NCBI GenBank assembly: GCA_965242525.1
Contig: OZ251459.1
Span: forward strand, 3,744,001 to 3,808,000
DNA from: an uncultured Candidatus Binatia bacterium
Lineage (GTDB): Bacteria > Desulfobacterota > Binatia > UBA9968 > JAJDTQ01
Direction: 5' to 3'
Length of the DNA: 64,000 bases
Made by a program: the position numbers and the translations under genes. Under the pieces are notes generated by a model that saw only the letters and a program-made list of their open reading frames with translations, had not been told where the DNA came from and made no database searches. Below are positions 8,063 to 63,911 of this stretch, piece by piece (position 1 is the first letter of the stretch; each line of letters begins with the position of its first letter).

Positions 8063-11000
8063 TCAAGCGGTTGCGCTTGGCTGTTCGAGCAGGGTCCCCT
8101 GCTCGCCGCGCTCTTCGCGTGCGAGGCGGGCGATCTCCGGCCAGCTCTGGACGAGCGCGTTGTAGGACGAGGCTTCCGCGGCGCGGCTCCGGCGCTCGGC
8201 GACAGCGTAGAGGCGGTAGGCGAGCTCGCGGGCGGTCTCGGCGACCCCGCCGAGTTTGCGGACGAGTCCCGCGGCCGCGGTCTCGCCCCCGGTTTCGAGG
8301 GCGCGAACGAGTTGATGGACCGTTTCCCAAGCGGTCAGCCTCGGGTCCGCGGCCGGGTCCCAATCCGCGGAAAGCTCCTCGGGCTCCAGCAACCGGACCT
8401 TGCCCGCCTTCGATGCGAGGACGCCGGCCTCCACCAGTCCGCCGACGCTGGTGTTCTTGGCCTTGGAGAGCGTCTCCGCGGCGCCGTACTCGCCCGCTTC
8501 GAATCCGTGCTGCTCGAACCACGCCAGCGCCCAACGGCTGTCGGCGTCGAAGTCGCCCTCCTGCTCCGCAAGGGTTTCGTCCAGGGTCTGGTTGATGAGC
8601 GCCAGCGCCTCCCGGACCGACACCGACTTGCCGGAGGCGTCCAGCACCCTGGCGTAGCGGGTATAGACCGCCATGCCGGGGCCGATGGCCGCCTGCGCCA
8701 GATCCACCGGCGCGATGTTGCCGGATTGCAGGTGGGCGAGGGCAGCGGGAAGCTCGGCTTTGAGCGCCGCCACGAACTCCCGGCGGGTGGCGAGGGAGGC
8801 GTCGGCCGGGCGTTTGCGGCAGACGAGGACGATGGAGGATGCGAGGGCGTTGGCGCCCATCCCGATCATGCGATTGCCGAGCTCAGTACGCATCGGCCAG
8901 GTACCGGTAACGGCGAAACCGGCACGGATCACGGCGTCGAGGAAGGTCTCCCATCCATTGCTGACCCCTGGGAGCGCGGGCGTCCCGCCCGCATTCGTCC
9001 TGCGGATACTCTCCGATTGCTTGAACGCATAGTAGATCGTGACCGGAAAGGAGGGATATGTCTGTTCGGCGAGGCGCTGCATGGCCCGCGTCATCCCGTC
9101 AAGAAAGAAGGTTTCGGCCTCGTCCTTGCCCCCGTGCCGGTAAGGAGTAGCGACCAGTTCCTCCGCCTTCGGGACGGCGAGCGTGGCGAAGAGATCGGGG
9201 AACGTCGAGCGTAATGACCGGCGCAGCCAGACGTAGAAGAAGTCGGACAGATCCGCGTAGCCGACGTTGTCGTAGTAGGGCGGGTCAGTTGATACCAACT
9301 TCCAAGTCGACAAATCTTGTTGAGCAGTAGCATCGAGCTGACAGGATCGCCCGAGTGTTCCACTTCGAAATTGTTTTTCTACGACTTCATAGACGGACTT
9401 CGTAGTTCCGAAGACATCGCCTCCGGCTCCGGCAAGAGGATTGGTCTCTGCGAAATCCCATACCATCGGCAGCGCTTGGCGACTGAATGTACCGACAAGC
9501 TTGTCTCGTTGTTCCCACCGACACAGGCCGGTGTTTCGGTCACACGCCTTGCTCTGCGCGAAGGCCAGATACACTCCCACCGCCTCGGCATACGCTGTTG
9601 CGCTCGTGCCACCGTCACGCAGGGGGAGATCGTCCCCTGGGAGCGCGGGCGTCCCGCCCGCATTTTCCTTGAGCGGGCGGGACGCCCGCGCTCCCAGGAT
9701 GTCCTGCTTGATCCGCGCGATTGCTTCCGTCACCAAGTCGGAGAAGGTGGTCAACGCGACCAGTTGGCGGGGGGTGAAGAGGTCCCCCCAGATCGTCAGG
9801 CCGTAGGGCACGCAGGTTCCGCCGGTGAGCCTCGCCGGAACGTCGCCGTCCGGCCGCCACTCCGGCTCCGCCTCCCGGGCGCGCTCCTCATGCTCCGACG
9901 TGGGCGCCAGATAGACGCGCCCGTGATCTCCCTCCGCGACGATGGCCATCAACCGGGCGCCCATGCGGCCAGCCTTCCCTTCGGCCTTGATGTAGTCACC
10001 GGCGACCGGCATGTCGGACATCAGGCAGCGGAAATTCGCGCCGCGGCCCAGCTTGGTTCCTTGTGTGGGCGGGAAGCCCGCGTCCTCCCGGGACACGCCG
10101 TTCCCGGAATGCATGGATTCCCGCTTACGCGGGAATGACGAGGATGGGGTCGGGATGTCCGCGCTACCAGGAGCGCCGGCCTTTGGTGCGCCGGTTCCAG
10201 GAGGACCTACCTTCACCGTGAAGCGGTAGCCGTCCTCCCCGACTACCGGCTCGACATACGCCTCCTTGCCCTTCTTCGTCGAGAGCATGAAGGTCGAGGC
10301 CAGCGGTACGTCCACGTCCCGGAACGCCGGGTTCGGGCTCTTGACCGTGCGTGCCCACAGCCACGCGATGACGGTCAGCTTCCGGCCCACGTACCGTTCC
10401 AGGTCCGGCCGCTCCCGCGCCATCGCCGCGGTGACCTCGACCTTCGGATACAGATGCCCGATGCGCTTTTCGGCCTCGTCGCGCATCCATCGACCGTAGT
10501 AGCGCACGTCCTCGGCCAGCCCTTGCGCGCCCTTCCAATCCTCCCGCTCAATCAGCGACTCCTTGGCGGCCGGTGCGTCGGGGCGGGCCTCGGGGTTCAC
10601 CGGCGGGCGGCCGGCGAACTTCGGCGGGATCTCGATCATCGCCTTGTTGATGAGCACCGCCACCGGGTTCAAGTCCGAGGCATGGGCTTCCAGCCCCAGG
10701 CGCTGCGCTTCCAGCGGCAGCGCGCCGCCGCCCGCGAACGGATCGTGGAAGGCCGGCAGCCGGTCGGGGTCGAACAGTTCGTCCGCCCGCGGATGGTCGC
10801 GATTCTCCGCGCAGGTCCGCCGCCAGCTTGTCCGGATCTCGTCGCGGGCGGCCTGCAACAGCGCCTCGTTCGTGGTGTTCTCCCACTTCACCAGTTCCTC
10901 GATGAGGCGGAACAGCCGCCGCCGTTCCTTCTCCTGGGCTTCCTCCGTGGGGAACCGGTCCGGCGACGCGGAGGGGTCGTCCACCATCTGCGCGAAGATC

Positions 11001-55428: not shown

Positions 55429-57510
55429 TCAGTCCCAACCCAGCCAGACGAACAGGTCCCCGGGCGGGAAGGGCAGATGGAGCATCATGTCGAAGATGCC
55501 GGCAAAGAAGAGGTAGGCCACCGCGGTCAGGACCACGGAGACGAGCCAGCCCTCCCGGGCGCCGAGCTTGAGGTAGAGGAAGGTCGCCACCAGCGACGAC
55601 CACACGAACCCGATGAGCCATATGGAGAGGAAGAACCCCACCACCCAGGCGCCGATGGCAAGGGTCCGCCTGCGGGTCTCCGCGGGCGGGATCTCCTCGA
55701 CATCCTCCACCCCCTCCTCCCCGTGGACCACCACCCTGGACCGGGTCATGATCTCCTTCCCGAACACCGCCAAGCTGACGGCGAAGGCCGGAAGCCCGAT
55801 GATGAGCGGGAACAGGGCCGCGCGCTCCTCGTCCGCGCCGAAGCCGAAGAAGCACTCGCGCAGCACGTAGGCGAACAGCGCGACGAAACACAGGGCGAAG
55901 ACCCCGTTGGCCACGCGCTCGTTGCGCGAGACCGCCTCCGTGGTCTTGGTGATCCCGGGCACTGCGAAAGCGGCTTCGTGGCGCTCGGCCCGCTTCCGTT
56001 CCCGGTAGGCCTGGAACAGGGGGTAGAACAGCCCGGCGAGGATGAGCAACATGATGACCAGCACCCCCGGCCGCAGCAGGAACCCGGCCCCATAGACCTT
56101 GGTCGCGATGAAGAGGTTGTTCTCCGCGATGCCGCCGAGGACGAGACCCAGCAGCAGCGGCGGCCGCTGCCAGTCGAACTTGACCATCAGCCACCCCACC
56201 AGCCCGAACACCAGCACCATGACGATGTCCCCGAACGCATTGTTGACGGCGAAGCCGCCCAGGTAGATCAGCATCAGGAGGAACGGGATCAGGTAGGTCC
56301 CCTTGACGAACGTGATCCTCGCCAAGTGGTTCAGGAACAGCAGGCACACCGCGACCGTGATGACGTTTGAGACGACGATGATCCAGACGAAGGAGAACGT
56401 CAGGTCCAGGTGCTTCTCGGGGTCGAGCAGGTCCGGCCCCGGCACGATGCCCTGGATGATGAAGGCCCCCAGCAGTATGGCCATGGAGACGCTGCCGGGC
56501 ACGCCGAAGGCGATGGTCGGCACCAGCGAGCCGCCCTCCTTGGAGTTGTTGGCGGCGCCGGGTCCGAGGACGCCCTCGATGGCGCCCTTGCCGAAGCGGT
56601 CCTTGTCCCCGGGCGAGCTCTGCACCGCGTGGGCGTAGGCCACCCACTGGGCCGGCCCGCCCCCGAGTCCCGGAATGAGGCCGATGTAGGAGCCGATGGC
56701 GCTGCACGACAGCACCAGCTTCCAGTGGCGGAAGGTGTCGATGACGCCCTGCATGACGCCGCCCAGCTTGCCGGTGGACTGGCGCGCGATGCTGGTCCCC
56801 TGGACCGACAGGTCGATGATCTCGGGGATGGCGAACAGGCCCACGGTCACCGACACCAGCGAAAGGCCGTCCCAGAGGAACAGCGCCGCGTCTTCGCCGA
56901 TGACCGGATCGAGGGTGAAGCGCGGCACGCTCTCGATGGGGTCCAGGCCGATGGTGGAGAGGACGAGCCCGAAAGCGCCGGTGCACAGGCCCTTGAGGAT
57001 GTTGCCGCCGCTCAGGGACGCCACGAAGGTGATCCCCAGCAGGGCGAGCATGAAGAACTCCGAGGAGCCGATGGAAAGCACCAGCGGCTGGACGATGGGT
57101 ATGGCCAGGGCCAGGGCGAAGGCGCCGAAGACGGCCCCCACCAGCGAGCTCATGAGCGCGGCCCCCAGGGCGCGGCCGGCTTCGCCCTTCTTGGCCATGG
57201 GGTGGCCGTCCACGATGGTGGCCGCGGTGATGCCTTCGCCAGGCACGCCGAAGAGGATCGAGGTGATGTCCCCGGTGGTGGCGGTCACCGCGTTCGAGCC
57301 CAGGAGGAACGCGAACGCGGTGGTGGGGTCCATCTTGTAGATGAACGGCAGCATGAGCGCCAGCGTGGTGGCCCCGCCGAGTCCGGGCAGGATGCCCACC
57401 ACGAAACCGATGGCGATGCCGATCAGCATGAAGATGAACGGGTCCTGCCCCGCGGCGGTGAACGGCAGGATGTTGGCCAGGCCGGCGAAGAACGAGTGGA
57501 AATGGTCCAT
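55429..57510 (-). CDS. Tripartite tricarboxylate transporter TctA with fused C-terminal TctB-like domain
   Basis: GILPGLG, VPGE, DGHPMA, GAANNS, GVPGS; about 170 extra hydrophobic residues ending LPFP.G. Confidence 0.9.
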   Translation of the reverse strand: MDHFHSFFAGLANILPFTAAGQDPFIFMLIGIAIGFVVGILPGLGGATTLALMLPFIYKMDPTTAFAFLLGSNAVTATTGDITSILFGVPGEGITAATIVDGHPMAKKGEAGRALGAALMSSLVGAVFGAFALALAIPIVQPLVLSIGSSEFFMLALLGITFVASLSGGNILKGLCTGAFGLVLSTIGLDPIESVPRFTLDPVIGEDAALFLWDGLSLVSVTVGLFAIPEIIDLSVQGTSIARQSTGKLGGVMQGVIDTFRHWKLVLSCSAIGSYIGLIPGLGGGPAQWVAYAHAVQSSPGDKDRFGKGAIEGVLGPGAANNSKEGGSLVPTIAFGVPGSVSMAILLGAFIIQGIVPGPDLLDPEKHLDLTFSFVWIIVVSNVITVAVCLLFLNHLARITFVKGTYLIPFLLMLIYLGGFAVNNAFGDIVMVLVFGLVGWLMVKFDWQRPPLLLGLVLGGIAENNLFIATKVYGAGFLLRPGVLVIMLLILAGLFYPLFQAYRERKRAERHEAAFAVPGITKTTEAVSRNERVANGVFALCFVALFAYVLRECFFGFGADEERAALFPLIIGLPAFAVSLAVFGKEIMTRSRVVVHGEEGVEDVEEIPPAETRRRTLAIGAWVVGFFLSIWLIGFVWSSLVATFLYLKLGAREGWLVSVVLTAVAYLFFAGIFDMMLHLPFPPGDLFVWLGWD

Positions 57511-57746
57511 GCCTTGGTCTTCGGGGGTCGAGGGTTCGAGTCGAAACGGAAGAGCGTCGTGCCCGCGTCAGCCCAGGGGGCCCGCGGGCGGTCACCCGTC
57601 ATGGGAGAGGTAATGGACTGGCCTTTATCGCGTAAATCCGGGAACCTGTCAAGCGCGGCCCCGGGTTTCGGGAAAGCCCGCGCCGCCCGCGGACCGGCTA
57701 CCCTGGCGCGGACGGCGGGGACGGAGACGCGGCCCTCCGGGCCGGT

Positions 57747-58181
57747 TCACGGCGGTCCGGACGCCAGCGACTCGTAGCTCGCGCCCTCGCCGTTCTCCCG
57801 GCTCACCGGAAGCCCCAGGCCGGCCCAGCCTTCGGCCACCACCTGCCCGTAAGGGTCGCGCAGGCCGCCGAACCCGCCGCGGACGCTGGCCACGTCCCGG
57901 TAACCCTGCCGCTCCAGCAGGTTTGCCGCATTGACGGACCGGGGTCCCGCCTGGCAGCCGAGCATCAGCTTCCGGTCCCTGGGGAAATGCTTCGCCACCA
58001 CGTCGAGGAAGTCCGGGTTGTATACCATGCCCTGGGCGGGGTCGTGGAACGCGATGGGGATGTTGACGGCCCCTTCGGGATGGCCCGCGGCGAACTCCTC
58101 CACCGTGCGCACGTCGATGTACACGCTTTCGGCGTCCTGCCGCAGGGCGTCGCATGCCTCCTGGGGCGAAATCTCTTTCAC
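57747..58181 (-). CDS. Rhodanese-like protein
   Basis: IDVRTVEEF..GHPEGAVNIP, CQAGPRS. Confidence 0.92.
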   Translation of the reverse strand: MKEISPQEACDALRQDAESVYIDVRTVEEFAAGHPEGAVNIPIAFHDPAQGMVYNPDFLDVVAKHFPRDRKLMLGCQAGPRSVNAANLLERQGYRDVASVRGGFGGLRDPYGQVVAEGWAGLGLPVSRENGEGASYESLASGPP

Positions 58182-58200
58182 GGTCCTCCCTCCTCGGTCT

Positions 58201-58974
58201 TCACATGCCCATGACGTTGTAACCCGCGTCCACGTGCACCGTTTCCCCGGTGACGCCGCTCCCCAGGTCGCTGGCCAGATAGACCGCGGTCCTGCCGATC
58301 TCCGCGGGGTCCACGTTGCGCTTGAGCGGCGCGCGCTCGCTGGCGTAGCGGAGCATGTCCCGGAACCCGGCGATGCCGGCCGCGGCCAAGGTCTTCACCG
58401 GGCCCGCGGAGATGGCGTTGACCCGGATCCCCTCCGGGCCCAGGTCGTAAGCCAGGTAGCGGACGCTCGCCTCCAGGGCCGCTTTCGCCACGCCCATGAC
58501 GTTGTAGTTGGGGACCACCTTCTCGGACCCCATGTAGGTCAGGGTCACCACCGAGCCGGCGCGCCCCTTCATCAGCCCGGCGGCGTGGCGCGTCAGCGCC
58601 ACCAGCGAATAGCTGCTGATGTCCAGCGCGGTGTGGAACCCCGCGCGCCCGGTCTGCAGGTAGGGTCGGGACAGGTCTTCCTTGTCGGCGTAGGCGATGG
58701 CGTGGATCAGGATGTCGAGACCTTCCCAGCGGCGGCCCACCTCCTCGAAGACCGCCTCGATCTCTTCGTCCCGGGTGACGTCGCACGGCAGCACCAAGTC
58801 CGAGCCGATGCCTTCCGCCAGCGGCCTCACGCGCTTCTCCAGGACTTCGCCGGCGTAGGTGAAAGCGAGCTCCGCCCCCTGGGCGTGCAGCTCCCGCGCC
58901 ACCGCCCAGGCAATGCTCCGGTCGTTGGCCACGCCGAAGATCAACGCCTTCCTGCCCGCAAGGATTCCGGCCAT
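58201..58974 (-). CDS. fabI: Enoyl-ACP reductase
   Basis: GVANDRSIAW, ISSYS, PNYNVMGVAKAALE, NAISAGP. Confidence 0.96.
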   Translation of the reverse strand: MAGILAGRKALIFGVANDRSIAWAVARELHAQGAELAFTYAGEVLEKRVRPLAEGIGSDLVLPCDVTRDEEIEAVFEEVGRRWEGLDILIHAIAYADKEDLSRPYLQTGRAGFHTALDISSYSLVALTRHAAGLMKGRAGSVVTLTYMGSEKVVPNYNVMGVAKAALEASVRYLAYDLGPEGIRVNAISAGPVKTLAAAGIAGFRDMLRYASERAPLKRNVDPAEIGRTAVYLASDLGSGVTGETVHVDAGYNVMGM

Positions 58975-59600
58975 TTCCGCTCCCTCGCCTCCTCCGCCCT
59001 GGAGGACGGCTGTTTCAGCCCCCTTTGCCAGAGGTGCTCCGTCTCCCCCAGGTTCGCGCCCACCCATCGCCCGAGGACGAAGAACAGGTCGCTCAACCGG
59101 TTGACGTAGCGGAGGGGCCACTCGCCTACGGTCTCCAGCCGCGACAGCCGGAGGATCTCCCGCTCGGCCCGCCGGCACACCGTGCGGCACTGGTGCAGTT
59201 GCGCGCTGACGGGTCCGCCTCCGGGCAGCACGAACGACTCCAGCGGCCGAAGCTCCTTCTGGCGCTCGTCCATGATCCGTTCGAGCCGGGCCACCTGCTC
59301 CCCGCCCATTCGGTGCATGCCCTCGTGGACGAAATCCTCCGGCGTAGCGAGCTCGCCGCCCAGGTCGAAGAGCTCCTGCTGGACGTCCCGGAGCACCGCG
59401 TCGAGCCCGCGGCGCAGTTCAGGCGTCCCCTTCCCTTCCCGGTTCCACGCCCGGGCCAGGCCCACCACCGCGTTGAGCTCGTCGATGGCGCCGTATGCCT
59501 CGATCCTGGCCGAGTCCTTGGGCGCGCGCTTGCCGCCCACCAGGGCGGTGGTTCCGTCGTCGCCGGTGCGCGTATAGACGCGGTTGATCCTGATGGCCAT
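58941..59600 (-). CDS. PduO-type cob(I)alamin adenosyltransferase
   Basis: VYTRTGDDGTT, YGAIDELN, FVLPGG, RTVCRRAER, YVNRLSDLFF. Confidence 0.94.
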   Translation of the reverse strand: MAIRINRVYTRTGDDGTTALVGGKRAPKDSARIEAYGAIDELNAVVGLARAWNREGKGTPELRRGLDAVLRDVQQELFDLGGELATPEDFVHEGMHRMGGEQVARLERIMDERQKELRPLESFVLPGGGPVSAQLHQCRTVCRRAEREILRLSRLETVGEWPLRYVNRLSDLFFVLGRWVGANLGETEHLWQRGLKQPSSRAEEARERKWPESLRAGRR

Positions 59601-59838
59601 CCCGAAAACCCCGACAGCGCTCAGGGTACAGGCTTCGAGGGAAAAATGCGAACCACGGGATGGATGCGAACCACGGGACCGTCCGATGCAGGACGCCGCC
59701 GGAGGGAGAGCGTGATTCCAACGGGGAACGACACCGGAGGAGGGGCGGCACGGGAAGACGAGGGGCGATGAAGGGTGGCGATGGAAGGGGGGCGATGGCG
59801 CGGACCATCGCCCATGCCGGTTCCCCGAAACCGTCACC

Positions 59839-59869
59839 GCGGGGGGAGGAGTGGACTCCATCCCCCCGC
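59839..59869. terminator. GC-rich hairpin downstream of the (GC)15 peptide gene
   Basis: GCGGGGGGAGGAGT/ACTCC(A)TCCCCCCGC inverted repeat; no U-tract. Confidence 0.3.
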
Positions 59870-59936
59870 CTCCGCGCGCCCCGACGACGGATCCTCACCT
59901 GCCGTTGGGGTCACCGTCCTCCGGACGTAGAGTATG

Positions 59937-60230
59937 TCAGTATGTCGTGTCGAATCCGAGCGACTCCATTTCCGGCGCAGTGCCGGACTCCAACGCATCC
60001 GCCGCGGCGCCGATCAGGTCGGCCACCGAATCGTCCGAATCGCTCGTGCAGCCACAGCCGCAACCACACCCGCAGCCGCAGCCACATCCGCACCCACAAC
60101 CGCAACCGCACCCACAGCCGCATCCGCATCCGCAACCGTGGATCTCCAGATCCAGGTCTTCGTCACGGGCGTCGAGCAGCCATGTGGTCGCCGCGGCGCC
60201 GGCCAAGTCGGAATCGTTGATGGTTTGCAT
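59937..60230 (-). CDS. 97-aa acidic peptide with central (Gly-Cys)15 tract; RiPP-precursor-like or metal-binding
   Basis: AAGGAG RBS 8 nt before ATG. The repeat (60048-60137) uses all 4 Gly codons and both Cys codons with no non-synonymous change. Confidence 0.85.
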   Translation of the reverse strand: MQTINDSDLAGAAATTWLLDARDEDLDLEIHGCGCGCGCGCGCGCGCGCGCGCGCGCGCGCTSDSDDSVADLIGAAADALESGTAPEMESLGFDTTY

Positions 60231-60443
60231 CTCTCGTTCTCCTTCCGTGTCGTGTTGTGGTCCAAAGCCCGCCTACACAGGAAAAGATCGACCGGTGGGG
60301 GGTGGACTTTAGCGGCGACCCCACCCGCGGGAGCGATTTTCCGCGCGGCCCGGGAGCCCGGCCCACGGGTCCGCGGACGTCAGGGAACGGACCGGGACCC
60401 CGGCCCTCTTCCCTGTCGGGCGCCCGAGGTGTTAGAAGGAGGC

Positions 60444-60884
60444 GTGGCGTCCACCCGCACACGGGTCGTCCTGGTCCTGCTGGGGCTGACCGTCCTTACG
60501 GGCTGCCTCCGGGAGGAGGAGATGAAGATGGTCTATGCCCAACGCTGTGCGAGCTGCCACGGCCCGGGCGGGAGGGGCGACGGTCCCGTGGTCCGGGCGC
60601 TCTCGGTGAAGGCGCCGGACTTCCGCGACACGGTGGCCAAACTGGACGTGATCGAGATCCGCCGCATCATCAAGGAGGGCAAGGGCATCATGCCGGCCTT
60701 CCGGCCGGTCCTGGAGAAGCACCAGATCCAGGACATGGTGCGCATGGTGCGGATGCTGAGCATGGAGGGGCGCGAGACCGAATGGTGGGAGAGGTTCGAG
60801 CCTCTCGTCTGGGCCCACTGCTCGGTGCCCTGGCAGTACGTGTACGAGTACCCCGCCCCGGGCAACGACAAGGGGAAACCCTGA
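60444..60884 (+). CDS. Monoheme cytochrome c, probably a lipoprotein
   Basis: AAGGAGG immediately before GTG (short spacing, start uncertain), lipobox-like LTGC, CASCH, axial Met in IMPAF. Confidence 0.88.
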   Translation: MASTRTRVVLVLLGLTVLTGCLREEEMKMVYAQRCASCHGPGGRGDGPVVRALSVKAPDFRDTVAKLDVIEIRRIIKEGKGIMPAFRPVLEKHQIQDMVRMVRMLSMEGRETEWWERFEPLVWAHCSVPWQYVYEYPAPGNDKGKP

Positions 60885-61145
60885 ACGATCATCCCCGTTC
60901 GTCCTGAGCCTGGCGCCCTGTTCTTGTCATGCACGGCGAATATGTCCCGCGCCGCATCTCTGCTGACAGAGCGACTGTTACAGGGTACTGGCAACAATTA
61001 ACCCCGTTCGTCCTGAACCTGGTGAAGCATCCGTCCTGAGCTTGGCGCAGCATCCCCGTTCGTGCTGAGGTAGCACGAAGCATCCCCGTTCGTCCTGAGC
61101 GTAGCGAAGCGAAGTCGAAGGACGCGCTCGAAGGACGCGCTTTCC
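60874..61145. repeat. REP/MITE cluster with tandem decaying cores
   Basis: GGAAACCCTGAACGAT overlaps the cytochrome stop; about 5 CCCGTTCGTCCTGA cores. Confidence 0.8.
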
Positions 61146-61206
61146 CGCAAGGAGAGGGAGTCCGGGCCGGAACGGATCGGACGTTCCGGGGGATCGTAAC
61201 GCAGTG

Positions 61207-62529
61207 TCAGGCGGCCGCGCCCGCAGGCGCCGGTCCCAGCGGGGGCGCCGCCTTCCTGGGCCGGATGCCCAGGGCGAACGCCGCGGCCATGAGTCCCATC
61301 CACCCACCGGCGAAGAACGCCATCTCGTATTCGCCCACGTAGTCGTAGAGCAGGCCGCCGCCGTTGGCCATCAGGGAACCGCCTATCTGGTGCGCCAGGA
61401 AGATCCAGCCGTAGATCCGCCCGATGGACTGCTTGCCGAAGGTCTGGCCCGCGATGGCGACCACCGGGGGAACGGTGGCGAACCAGTCGAGCCCATAGAC
61501 GACGGTGAAGATGAAGAGCCCGGGCACGTCGGTCACGAACGTCAGGTAGAAGAGCGCCGCTCCCCGCAGCGTGAACACCGCGGCGATGAGCTTCCGCGGG
61601 TCCACCTTGTCGGTCAACCATCCGGAGAACAGGGTGCCGACGATGTTCAGGCCTCCCATGACCGCCATGGCTGTGGCCACCGTGGCCGCCTCGAATCCGC
61701 GCTCCAGCGCGTGCGGCAGCAGATGGGTCCCGATGAGCCCGTTGGCGGTGCCGCCGCAGATGGAGAAGACCCCGCACAGGAGCCAGAAAGTGGGGGTCTT
61801 GACCGCGTCCCGGATGCCCATGACCCGGCCTACGGGCTTCGGGGCGTCCGTATTCGGCCCTGCCGGGGCGGGTTCGGCCCCGGGTCCCTCGTCGTAGGGC
61901 TCCAGCCCCACGTCCCCGGGTTTGTCGCGCATGAACATCCACACCAGCACCGCGGCAGCGGCGGTGCAGGCCACTAGCACGTTCGTGCCCGTGCGCCAGC
62001 CGACGTAGGCGACCAGCGCCAGCATGAACGGGATGAAGACGATCTGTCCCGAGGAGCTGCCGCTGCTGAGGATGCCCACCGCGAGTCCGCGCCGGGCGTT
62101 GAACCACCGATGCGCCACGGAAGCGGAGAGCACGCCGGACATGCCGCCGGCCCCGAGCCCCACCATGACTCCCCAGGTGAGCCAGAACTGCCACAACTCG
62201 TTCACGTAAGTGGCGCTGTACAGCCCCCCGGAGAGCAGGATCAGCGAGGTCAGCATCACCCGGCGCGGCCCGTACTTGTCGAGGATCCAACCCACCACCG
62301 GGGCGGCGACCCCGTAGAGCAGGAGGTTGATGGAAATCCCGAAGGTGATGGCGAACCGGGACCATCCGAAGTCCGCTTCGAGGGGATGGATCAGCACGGT
62401 GGGGACCACGCGGATGCCGGCCCCGTTGAAGCTGGAGAAGAAGGTGACGGCCACGATGAGCCACCCGTAATGGAAGGGCAGCGAGATGGGCGGGCGCGGC
62501 TTGGCCTGGGGGTTCCCGGGATAGTCCAT
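61207..62529 (-). CDS. MFS transporter
   Basis: GWILDKYGPRR (motif A), WFNARRGLA, GWLTDK; about 12 TM segments. Confidence 0.92.
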   Translation of the reverse strand: MDYPGNPQAKPRPPISLPFHYGWLIVAVTFFSSFNGAGIRVVPTVLIHPLEADFGWSRFAITFGISINLLLYGVAAPVVGWILDKYGPRRVMLTSLILLSGGLYSATYVNELWQFWLTWGVMVGLGAGGMSGVLSASVAHRWFNARRGLAVGILSSGSSSGQIVFIPFMLALVAYVGWRTGTNVLVACTAAAAVLVWMFMRDKPGDVGLEPYDEGPGAEPAPAGPNTDAPKPVGRVMGIRDAVKTPTFWLLCGVFSICGGTANGLIGTHLLPHALERGFEAATVATAMAVMGGLNIVGTLFSGWLTDKVDPRKLIAAVFTLRGAALFYLTFVTDVPGLFIFTVVYGLDWFATVPPVVAIAGQTFGKQSIGRIYGWIFLAHQIGGSLMANGGGLLYDYVGEYEMAFFAGGWMGLMAAAFALGIRPRKAAPPLGPAPAGAAA

Positions 62530-62611
62530 TGGATCTCACTTTCCGGGGGAGCGGGGAGACGGGGGAAACGAAGGTCCCTGCGAAGGCCCCGTCCCCGTCC
62601 CCCGGTCCCGG

Positions 62612-63589
62612 CTATTTCGGCAACGCGTCGCGCATGGCCTGGGTGTATTTGGTGTAGCTCTTGACGTAGTTGTCCAGGTCGCTCTCCGCGGCCTTGGAGT
62701 CCCCCGGCACGATGGGGCTCTTGGACTTGGCCAGGAACTCCCGGTATTCCGGATCGTTCATGGCCTTGACGAAGAGGTCCTCCAGGATCTTCTTCCGGTC
62801 GTCCGGCAGACCCGGTGGCGCCACGATGCTGCGGCCCACGTAGAGGCGGAGGTCGATGCCCTTCTCCTTTGCCGTCGGGGTGTCCGGAGCGTTGACCGGC
62901 CTCTGGTCGTGCAGGTGCAGGACCGGCCTCACGTCGCCCGACTTGATGTAGGAGGCGGTGGTGGGGTGGTCGATGGGCTGGAGATAGACGTCGAAGTCGT
63001 TCCGGATCATGGCCGGTATGCCCTCGCTGGTGCCGCGGTACCCGGACACCACGTCCATCTTGATGCCGAGCTCCCTGGCCGCCACGAACGTGGGGATCCA
63101 GCGCGACACGCCGATGCCCTCCACGCCCCACTTCACGCGGTCCGCCTTCTGGAGGTCTTCGAGGGTGTGGAAACGGGAGTCCTTGCCGACGATGAGGCTG
63201 TAGGGCTCGGCTCCCACCCGCGCGATGTAGGTGAACTTGGTGACGTCGTAGCCGGTCTTCTCGGCGCCGCTGATCAACTGCTTGCCGAGCATGCCGTCGG
63301 TGAACAGGTGGCCCAGGGTGTAGCCGTCGGGCCTCGCCTTGTACATGGCCACCGTGCCGATGACCAGTCCGCCGCCGGTGATGTTCTTGACCACGATATG
63401 GACGCCCTCGGGCAGGTACTTCCTCATGGTCCTGCCAATGGCCCGGGCCAGCCGGTCGAACCCGCCGCCGGGAGACCCCGCGACGATGATGGTGATGTTC
63501 TTCTTCGGGAAGTCGGCAGCCGCAACGGTCCTCGACTGCGCCAAGCCCACCAGGGCCGCCAGCAATGTCAACGCAACCCATTTCCTCAT
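62612..63589 (-). CDS. Tripartite tricarboxylate transporter substrate-binding protein (TctC/Bug)
   Basis: Signal peptide, FPKKNITIIV..PGGGFD, PDGYT, YRG, APPGLP. Confidence 0.92.
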   Translation of the reverse strand: MRKWVALTLLAALVGLAQSRTVAAADFPKKNITIIVAGSPGGGFDRLARAIGRTMRKYLPEGVHIVVKNITGGGLVIGTVAMYKARPDGYTLGHLFTDGMLGKQLISGAEKTGYDVTKFTYIARVGAEPYSLIVGKDSRFHTLEDLQKADRVKWGVEGIGVSRWIPTFVAARELGIKMDVVSGYRGTSEGIPAMIRNDFDVYLQPIDHPTTASYIKSGDVRPVLHLHDQRPVNAPDTPTAKEKGIDLRLYVGRSIVAPPGLPDDRKKILEDLFVKAMNDPEYREFLAKSKSPIVPGDSKAAESDLDNYVKSYTKYTQAMRDALPK

Positions 63590-63812
63590 GACGTCCTCCT
63601 TGTCCGTGGCTTCGCACCCGCCCGATTCCCGGGATTCCCGAGGTTTCGGGATTCCCAAGAGAAACACCATCCGGGAAGGTGTTGTCAAACCCTATTCTCG
63701 CGGGGGGTTCTTGCGCAGGTCCTCGGACCGCCCCGGAACGGGAGGCCGTCGGCCCGGCGTGGCGCGGCTGTCCGGCAGGGGTTCGCCCCCCGATCCGGCG
63801 AGAGTCAGGCAA

Positions 63813-63911
63813 GGAAACCCCGGACGATCCGGCAAGAGCAAGGCAAGGAAACCCCGGACGACGATTCCCCGTTCGTCCTGAGCGTAGCGAAGCGAAGTCG
63901 AAGGACGCGCT
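63813..63911. repeat. REP/MITE copy
   Basis: Two GGAAACCCCGGACGA ends, then the full REP core. Confidence 0.78.

Follow-up and report, generated by a model that had tools for sequence, protein, structure and literature searches.

The window analysed here, a stretch of 64,000 nucleotides from an uncultured Candidatus Binatia bacterium (contig OZ251459.1, positions 3,744,001 to 3,808,000), carries on its minus strand, at 59937..60230, an open reading frame (ORF) for a 97-residue peptide that reads MQTINDSDLAGAAATTWLLDARDEDLDLEIH, then (GC)15, then a 36-residue tail, TSDSDDSVADLIGAAADALESGTAPEMESLGFDTTY. This ORF is a real protein-coding gene under selection, and its family is genetically coupled to an operon that encodes a multinuclear non-haem iron oxidase (MNIO), a partner protein and type I secretion components. 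We consider it probable that the window peptide is the substrate of an MNIO encoded in trans, which would oxidise its cysteines to heterocycles of the thiooxazole type, as ligands of copper or another soft metal. The operon linkage to an MNIO and its partner points to the oxidation of Cys to thiooxazole or to oxazolone/thioamide; we infer the chemistry and the metal, and a metal-binding end product would be plausible.

The features of the gene are as follows, L004 being the locus that carries its orthologue.

59937..60230, minus strand: 97-residue ORF with leader, (Gly-Cys)15, acidic tail and stop codon (ORF call and homologues)
60237..60246, minus strand: Shine-Dalgarno-like GGAAGGAGAA, 6 nt ahead of the ATG (identical stretch in L004)
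60138..60230, minus strand: leader of 31 residues, with family-invariant W17, L19, E29 and H31 and nearly invariant L26 (alignments)
60048..60137, minus strand: core of 15 Gly-Cys pairs, the presumed modification site (variation solely at codon position 3)
59940..60047, minus strand: acidic tail (linker) of 36 residues, whose end aligns to where the C-terminal domain begins in a paralogue
59853..59936, minus strand: decayed in-frame remnant of a lost C-terminal domain, running across two stops (..DPNGR*GSVVGARGGGGMES; tblastn with the paralogue)

Judged from its sequence, the peptide has the anatomy of a precursor of a peptide that is ribosomally synthesised and then modified post-translationally (RiPP), with a conserved leader, a Cys-rich core and a follower. 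Both flanks are acidic: the leader has eight Asp/Glu and one Lys/Arg among its 31 residues, and the tail nine and none among 36. By inspection, the N-terminus (MQTINDSDLAGAAATTW..) is likewise acidic, with neither a basic n-region nor a hydrophobic core, and is thus predicted to lack a Sec signal peptide. The repeat uses TGC ten times, TGT five, GGC five, GGT four, GGA three and GGG three. Within its 6-nt period, the variable sites are both third codon positions alone, and all changes are synonymous; in the other five frames, the repeat reads as irregular mixtures (VADADAAV.., QPQPQPHP.., AATAATTP..). For these two reasons, the Gly-Cys frame is the one that has been retained. A first-pass annotation made from the letters alone had described the acidic N-terminal region of 31 residues, the exactly 15 GC dipeptides, the acidic tail of 36 residues, the ribosome-binding site and the use of all six TGY/GGN codons with no amino-acid change, all of which agree with the ORF call, the composition and GGAAGGAGAA. 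Its further claim of selection at the protein level is borne out by comparisons with the orthologue and with other sequencing runs.

The L004 orthologue has 14 GC pairs written with different synonymous codons, and 5 of its 31 leader codons differ from those of the window, 4 of them synonymously. Nucleotide identity to L004 is 95% in the leader, 92% in the repeat (with one 6-nt indel), 83% in the tail, 76% with indels in the remnant after the stop and 84% in the 100 nt upstream. In contigs from three other runs (X4, X6 and X7, labelled sponge metagenome or metagenome), the repeat carries 6-nt deletions that keep the frame. The substitutions in these contigs are synonymous in the leader (3/3) and in the repeat (3/3); of the nine in the tail, 3 are synonymous and 6 non-synonymous. 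When the paralogue is used as a tblastn query, the match crosses the stop of the window gene in frame (..MESLGFDTTY*HTLRPEDGDPNGR*GSVVGARGGGGMES aligns with ..MSSMGFDPIAAATGELYDPNGDESFFVTGTRGMGEMGS). In L004, the stop comes 7 codons later than in the window copy, and the remainder of the C-terminal domain is gone in both. These alignments identify the window gene as a C-terminally truncated member of a family whose full-length kin are longer. Given that all six differences in leader and core are synonymous, against the 3:6 ratio in the tail, leader and core have been held under purifying selection since the domain was lost.

The family was recovered by several routes. When 5.8 billion proteins were searched, 14 of 1159 candidates proved to be homologues at E ≤ 0.01. 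The first 38 residues, used as a profile against 1.84 billion proteins, matched only 27 representatives. In a scan with one genome for each species, 44 candidate stretches came up and 17 were confirmed as family loci, labelled as 13 Candidatus Binatia, 2 Thermodesulfobacteriota and 2 Deltaproteobacteria metagenome-assembled genomes. The window's own genome holds the paralogue mentioned above, a second copy at C1:1579205-1579504 (E 7.6e-29, 63% identity) that is about 190 residues long. Family members share an acidic leader (31 residues long in 15 of 19 aligned rows), a run of X-Cys and an acidic linker, followed in most of them by a variable C-terminal domain. The leader follows the pattern ..[AV]x[PT]W[LM]L......LDLE[IV]H and leads into GCGCGC; GCGC is invariant along with the four leader residues listed above. 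Beyond HGCGCGC, the core continues as X-Cys, in which X is mostly G and otherwise S, A, D, N, T or E, and the total comes to 12-18 Cys per member. A conserved Cys-containing motif is expected of MNIO precursors, and here HGCGCGC is invariant in the family. No Pfam family matches the 97-residue peptide, and its sole NCBIfam match is a chance one (17 bits against a cut-off of 250 bits).

The link to the enzyme comes from the surroundings of the homologues. Genes were called and clustered around 19 family loci. In three loci (L020, L053 and L055), a family gene stands immediately upstream of an MNIO operon. These loci, and a fourth of related content, are arranged as follows.

L020: family gene, MNIO (PF05114, E 3.4e-70), 260-residue protein without Pfam family, 761-residue ATP-binding cassette (ABC) protein, HlyD, short-chain dehydrogenase/reductase (SDR), S9 peptidase
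L053 (G257): precursor, S9 peptidase, MNIO, partner, ABC, HlyD, TauD-family dioxygenase (TauD)
L055 (G249): precursor, MNIO, partner (placed separately, between MNIO and ABC), ABC, HlyD, TauD, SDR, S9 peptidase
L054 (G325): cl1, a four-helix membrane protein of about 150 residues, in the precursor's place

The MNIO and partner genes overlap, stop to start, in all 30 loci in which the pair was compared. Partial sets also stand beside family genes, namely cl1 with HlyD and TauD in 7 loci, and major facilitator superfamily (MFS) genes with cl1 and S9 peptidase in 7 loci. The precursor in L055 (9949-10107 on the minus strand, with 10109-10411 on the opposite strand) has a leader of 46 residues with a four-fold (DALQR) insert after the start.

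In the window's own genome (98.96% complete), PF05114 has exactly one match (E 6.7e-74), in an operon on the minus strand at G000:C1:376185-382759 with these genes.

C1 381884-382759, minus strand: MNIO
C1 381067-381897, minus strand: partner
C1 379260-381107, minus strand: ABC
C1 377921-379267, minus strand: HlyD
C1 376953-377882, minus strand: TauD
C1 376185-376913, minus strand: SDR

Its proteins are 78% (MNIO), 60% (partner), 75% (ABC) and 75% (HlyD) identical to those of L020. The sequence upstream of the operon holds repeat elements and an ORF resembling an amidohydrolase, with no precursor among them, and the peptide gene lies 3.42 Mb away on contig C1, or 0.73 Mb if C1 is a closed circle. 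Given that the only operon has no adjoining precursor, both family peptides of this genome, the 97-residue one and the one of about 190 residues, would be served in trans. Two types of operon can be told apart. The accessory type has a 761-residue ABC protein with an N-terminal C39-like domain and includes L020, L053 and L055 with cis-encoded precursors, L054 with cl1, and L056 with neither; the core type, to which the operon of the window's genome belongs, has an ABC protein of about 604 residues without that domain. About 5 kb from the latter operon, at G000:C1:371377-373596, lies a gene for a membrane protein without a Pfam family, and its counterpart in a sister genome (L005 7507-9594; the two are 695-739 residues long and 68% identical) is directly upstream of the orthologue of the paralogue, which is possibly a coincidence.

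A trans arrangement is normal in the genus. In a survey of 401 genomes sampled from the class (27 from the window's genus, its own included, and 374 others), the precursor was found in 27, comprising 26 of the 27 in the genus and one weak match (E 7.9e-5) among the others, and the partner protein was found in 25, every one of them in the genus. G081 had neither in this survey, and G331 (76% complete) had precursors with no partner found. Among the 25 genomes with both, precursor and partner share a contig in 18; in three of these (G204, G249 and G257) they are less than 5 kb apart, and in the other 15 they are at least 58 kb apart, which is the basis for regarding separation as the rule. As sampled here, the family is small and confined to one Candidatus Binatia genus.

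The first-pass annotation had proposed a RiPP precursor modified in trans, had called the gene an orphan and had suggested looking at the neighbourhoods of homologues and for maturases in the genome. The trans-modified RiPP gains support from the operon linkage, whereas the thiazole or thioether chemistry that went with it loses ground, as no YcaO was found. "Orphan" is apt in that no maturase is adjacent and inapt in that the gene is not alone, having a paralogue in the same genome and a family beyond it. Searches of this kind found a family with a conserved leader, an MNIO operon rather than YcaO or radical SAM genes beside three of its members, and a single MNIO operon in the window's genome. 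The paralogue and the truncation relative to longer family proteins were absent from that annotation.

Among NCBIfam models, the MNIO of the operon scores best with BufB (204.2 bits, cut-off 310) and HvfB (178.2 bits, cut-off 360), followed by ApyH (99.8 bits) and ChrH (50.3 bits), and it reaches 41.6 bits against the MbnB model TIGR04159 (cut-off 325). Among solved structures, its closest matches are 3BWW (E 9.6e-36), TglH (3.6e-18) and MbnB (about 5e-6). 3BWW is placed among MNIO-PME1 loci with products assigned as 5-thiooxazoles, and FonB is described as favouring a Cys-Gly dyad (PMC12668002). That dyad is the context of each Cys in the window core.

By sequence, the partner protein matches nothing in Pfam, NCBIfam or PDB, DUF2063 and MbnC included. 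In a Foldseek search with its AlphaFold model (pLDDT 78.8), TglI (8hi7_A, E 1.8e-4) and NGO1945 (3dee, E 3.3e-3) make up the top three hits, and the protein encoded behind the MNIO is accordingly modelled with a TglI/NGO1945-like fold, of the kind seen in DUF2063 and RiPP recognition elements. Because it lacks the DUF2063 signature, it would be a PME-type 2 partner in the terms set out in part of PMC12452194. The HlyD protein exceeds the cut-off of TIGR01843 (type_I_hlyD; 328.9 bits against 208.65) and is thus a type I secretion adaptor, and the ABC protein is HlyB-like at 555.5 bits, below the cut-off of 725.55. This dedicated ABC protein and HlyD-type adaptor are encoded in the MNIO operon and not in the neighbourhood of the window gene. 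Complex predictions for MNIO, partner and precursor residues 1-50 scored 0.74, 0.74 and 0.72, with 0.65 for a control in which the MNIO was replaced and 0.00 for two controls with unrelated peptides; given the score of the MNIO control they gave no verdict, and we do not use them as evidence in either direction.

Under the favoured reading, the partner protein would bind the conserved leader, the MNIO would then oxidise cysteines in the repeat, yielding 5-thiooxazoles or else pairs of oxazolone and thioamide, and the product would be a dense chain of N,S donors, a potential ligand of Cu(I) or another soft metal.

Several observations weigh against this reading. The window gene is not adjacent to the operon, and its link to the MNIO is therefore indirect. 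The operons with cis-encoded precursors are of the paralogous accessory type, and no core-type operon was seen with one. As the MNIO falls below the BufB and HvfB cut-offs, their chemistry cannot be confidently transferred to it. Neither the operon nor the peptide gene was seen to have a copper gene next to it. (AMO/PmoA, PF02461, has no match in this genome, yet its control had no match anywhere either, and the result is uninformative.) Precursor and operon are confined to one genus, and since kin are not independent, their co-occurrence is close to a single phylogenetic event; the true link comes from the cis loci. The window gene has lost its C-terminal domain and is possibly heading to decay. 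Finally, all of the 23 sequencing runs listed for the peptide gene are contig sets and none is RNA; five of these runs contain at least half of the query words.

A different possibility is that the peptide is an unmodified, metallothionein-like buffer of metal or sulfur, acting through the free thiolates of (Gly-Cys)15, and that the MNIO operon serves only relatives encoded in cis. The 15 cysteines are at Cys-X-Cys spacing between acidic, soluble flanks, no maturase adjoins the gene, and the operon of this genome belongs to the core type, for which no cis-encoded precursor was seen. Nevertheless, the best conserved part of the family is the leader, whose invariant residues make more sense as part of a recognition sequence than as a metal site, and in 20 of the 25 genomes with both components there is one partner match, apparently a single operon, yet one to three dispersed family genes. 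Moreover, the metallothionein models of Pfam and NCBIfam do not match the peptide, and Cys-X-Cys spacing is the feature in common. We regard such a buffer as rather unlikely.

The truncation raises the question of whether the gene is a decaying remnant, a functionless N-terminal leftover of a former gene for about 190 residues. The second stop within the paralogue-like sequence past the window stop, the similar truncation in L004 and the tail, where 6 of 9 changes are non-synonymous, would all fit such a fate. Against this, leader and core have remained far closer to L004 than the post-stop remnant has since the truncation, their differences among populations are all synonymous, the indels are in-frame hexamers, and the ribosome-binding site is kept in both the window gene and L004. 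Thus, we find it quite unlikely that the window gene is a mere leftover.

The C-terminal domains of the longer members suggest yet another role. Behind the common N-terminus, there are a Gly/Ala-rich type with two Cys, whose long members often end in ..ETLLVVH, the type of the paralogue, an Ala-rich type and others. Pfam assigns no family to 21 of the 22 members that were scanned, and the remaining one has a sub-threshold chance match. Five metagenomic members (P0024, P0029, P0030, P0031 and P0033) have in common a domain that bears the motifs SxHYxGxAxDxR and HxHxE and belongs to no Pfam family. Its profile matches Hedgehog N-domains in PDB (hmmsearch, E 2.8e-4). The model of this domain has a mean pLDDT of 62.6 and is confident in the C-terminal ~100 residues only; with that part, Foldseek returned the Hedgehog N-domain 6dmy_B (E 9.2e-4), with VldE and an endolysin lower. 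We take this Hedgehog-N-like domain to have the LAS zinc-hydrolase fold. A search of the ESM Atlas with the C-terminal part of the paralogue gave no usable match. Companion genes are also present. The cl1 protein, which is predicted to have four membrane helices and matches neither a Pfam nor an NCBIfam family, is encoded next to and downstream of family genes of the Gly/Ala-rich type in 8 loci, including L007 (10596-11042) and L012 (10606-11202), and in L054 (10373-10831) directly upstream of the MNIO; from its position it may be immunity-like. No copy was found in the window's genome by tblastn at E 1e-8. A gene for a Sel1-repeat protein follows the paralogue.

One could therefore read the N-terminus as a secretion or targeting module of polymorphic effectors, of which the window copy would carry no cargo, a reading that is compatible with modification by the MNIO. 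It would account for the different C-terminal domains, among them the hydrolase-like one, for the membrane and Sel1-repeat proteins that follow, and for a HlyD adaptor scoring above its type I secretion cut-off. Nonetheless, the toxic and immunity roles are putative, nearly all of the scanned members lack a Pfam family, and the fold match depends on the confident part of a model of low mean pLDDT. In addition, an effector module alone leaves the MNIO and partner genes unexplained, and we judge this explanation improbable.

A bolder proposal, which we consider unlikely, would combine this idea with MNIO modification. The family would then consist of "metallophore-tagged" polymorphic effectors, in which a poly-thiooxazole N-terminal tag joined to a variable C-terminal effector is exported by type I secretion and hijacks the metallophore uptake of competitors, and the 97-residue peptide would be the free tag. 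If this were true, the effector domains would be a LAS/Hedgehog-type cell-wall hydrolase, a membrane-active Gly/Ala-rich domain and others, and the family would be a genetically fused analogue of siderophore-microcins. The free tag, an oligomer of 15 aminomethyl-thiooxazole units, would act on its own as a copper chelator of high capacity, in a symbiont from sponge metagenomes.

A YcaO poly-thiazole or radical-SAM thioether RiPP, to which the resemblance of the Gly/Cys-rich core to the cores of thiazole/oxazole-modified microcins had pointed, is very improbable, since PF02624 has no match in the window's genome (the control matched in 5 of 14 genomes) and neither a YcaO nor a radical SAM gene stands beside any of the 19 family loci (for radical SAM genes, the survey covered these surroundings and not the rest of the genome).

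Around the window gene itself, a Pfam scan of eight nearby ORFs (within 55429-63688), and not of the whole 64 kb, identified a PduO-type adenosyltransferase (PF01923), FabI (PF13561) and rhodanese (PF00581) and no maturase, in agreement with the earlier list of neighbours; any modification of the window peptide would therefore take place in trans. A divergent ORF on the opposite strand to the peptide gene (60446-60884) carries a CASCH haem motif and has no Pfam match at E 0.01. These neighbours (cytochrome c, PduO, FabI and rhodanese) can be ruled out as functional partners, as they are present only in the window's genome and L004 and absent from the other 17 loci. Scans for promoters and terminators between 59500 and 60700 returned no site of either kind, and an Rfam scan of 58500-62000 returned no match.

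Other features of the neighbourhood are recorded here as observations. An MFS transporter gene (61207-62529, minus strand) lies upstream of the peptide gene on the same strand, likewise in L004, the two being separated in the window by the opposite-strand CASCH ORF. Two to three copies of MFS genes also lie upstream of the family gene in seven "group B" loci (for example, L012 7208-9841 and L017 7206-9839). At 55429-57510, on the minus strand, one ORF of 693 residues fuses TctA (PF01970) and TctB (PF07331), the large and small subunits of a tripartite tricarboxylate transporter. A short repeat element occurs at 61090-61140 and 63870-63900 of the window, as well as in L022 (6760-7300) and L002 (~1900-2100). 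Its 16-mers have about 350-530 occurrences in the 4.2-Mb genome, in the manner of repetitive extragenic palindromes or miniature inverted-repeat transposable elements (REP/MITE-like), and its translations (..LRLRFATLRTNG.., ..PFVLSVAKRSRRT..) appear in many spurious ORFs, including some beside the MNIO operon and both family genes.

If the favoured reading holds, the system would matter for several reasons. What distinguishes it is a predicted leader-dependent substrate with Cys at each second residue across 30 residues; full processing of the Gly-Cys run would give an oligomer of alternating heterocycles, unusual in its density and in its capacity for metal, and would probe how an MNIO threads and iteratively processes its substrate. 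It also illustrates how "orphan" Cys-repeat ORFs may be assigned to a maturase through family-wide context, and for uncultured Binatia with DNA in runs labelled sponge metagenome it suggests a chemistry of copper or a soft metal as a candidate. To our knowledge, the characterised Cys-modifying MNIO systems have either Sec-exported precursors or are the two-Cys methanobactins. None of the papers listed by one literature search has both an MNIO/thiooxazole term and a type I secretion/HlyD term, and none of those listed by another mentions Binatia or Binatota. Work on MNIO enzymes is expanding rapidly, and their clusters are put at tens of thousands in PMC12668002.

The nearest known systems are the captophorins (the bufferins Buf1/DUF2282 and Buf2, oxazolin/HvfA and fontiphorin), described in parts of PMC12668002 and PMC12452194 as Cys-rich, copper-binding peptides with 5-thiooxazoles made by MNIOs. 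As in those systems, the operon here encodes an MNIO (PF05114) with BufB and HvfB as best models and 3BWW as best solved relative, the partner gene overlaps that of the MNIO, and the substrate is repetitive and Cys-rich with Cys before a small residue. In contrast to captophorins, the leader is acidic with no Sec signal peptide, the partner is PME-type 2 and not DUF2063 (PME-type 1), and there is no DoxX, the operon encoding instead a type I secretion ABC protein, HlyD, TauD and SDR. The core also differs, being (X-Cys)n with Cys at each second residue and without an EGKCG (Lys-Cys), Cys-Lys or DUF2282 signature, and the precursors are mostly dispersed in the genome and have variable C-terminal domains. 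The sub-cut-off scores of the MNIO further set it apart from the bufferin and oxazolin systems.

A group called adjamnio-I comprises 100 uncharacterised sequences of 122-293 residues with 8-21 Cys and a PME-type 2 partner, and the paper assigns it neither a motif nor a chemistry nor a function (PMC12452194, Table 2). By that description, the cis-encoded members found here (178-270 residues, 12-16 Cys) fit in length, Cys count and gene order, and the two groups may coincide, although the 97-residue window peptide falls below the length range given. In methanobactins, as outlined in part of PMC9060507, the Cys residues of MbnA are modified in a leader-dependent manner by MbnBC to a bidentate N,S copper ligand, and the peptide is secreted. 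The proposed leader-dependent modification of Cys by an MNIO and the presumed secretion of the peptide would be similar here; unlike methanobactins, the MNIO scores far below the MbnB cut-off, the partner has no MbnC signature, there are 15 Cys rather than 2, and export relies on genes of the type I secretion class.

Class IIb siderophore-microcins such as MccE492 and H47 are also ribosomal polypeptides that combine a metal chelator with an antibacterial part and are exported by ABC/HlyD-type systems. Their chelator is a catecholate attached post-translationally at the C-terminus, whereas here it would arise from the protein's own N-terminal Cys repeat, and antibacterial activity is putative. 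Bacterial metallothioneins (SmtA/BmtA and MymT) are short, rich in Cys-X-Cys and bind soft metals, and the family described here differs from them in its conserved leader, its maturase linkage and the lack of a sequence match. MNIO-modified Cys-rich peptides are already known, and the family described here stands apart from them in the type of leader, the type of partner, the export genes, the density of the core, the dispersal of the precursors and the variability of their C-terminal domains.

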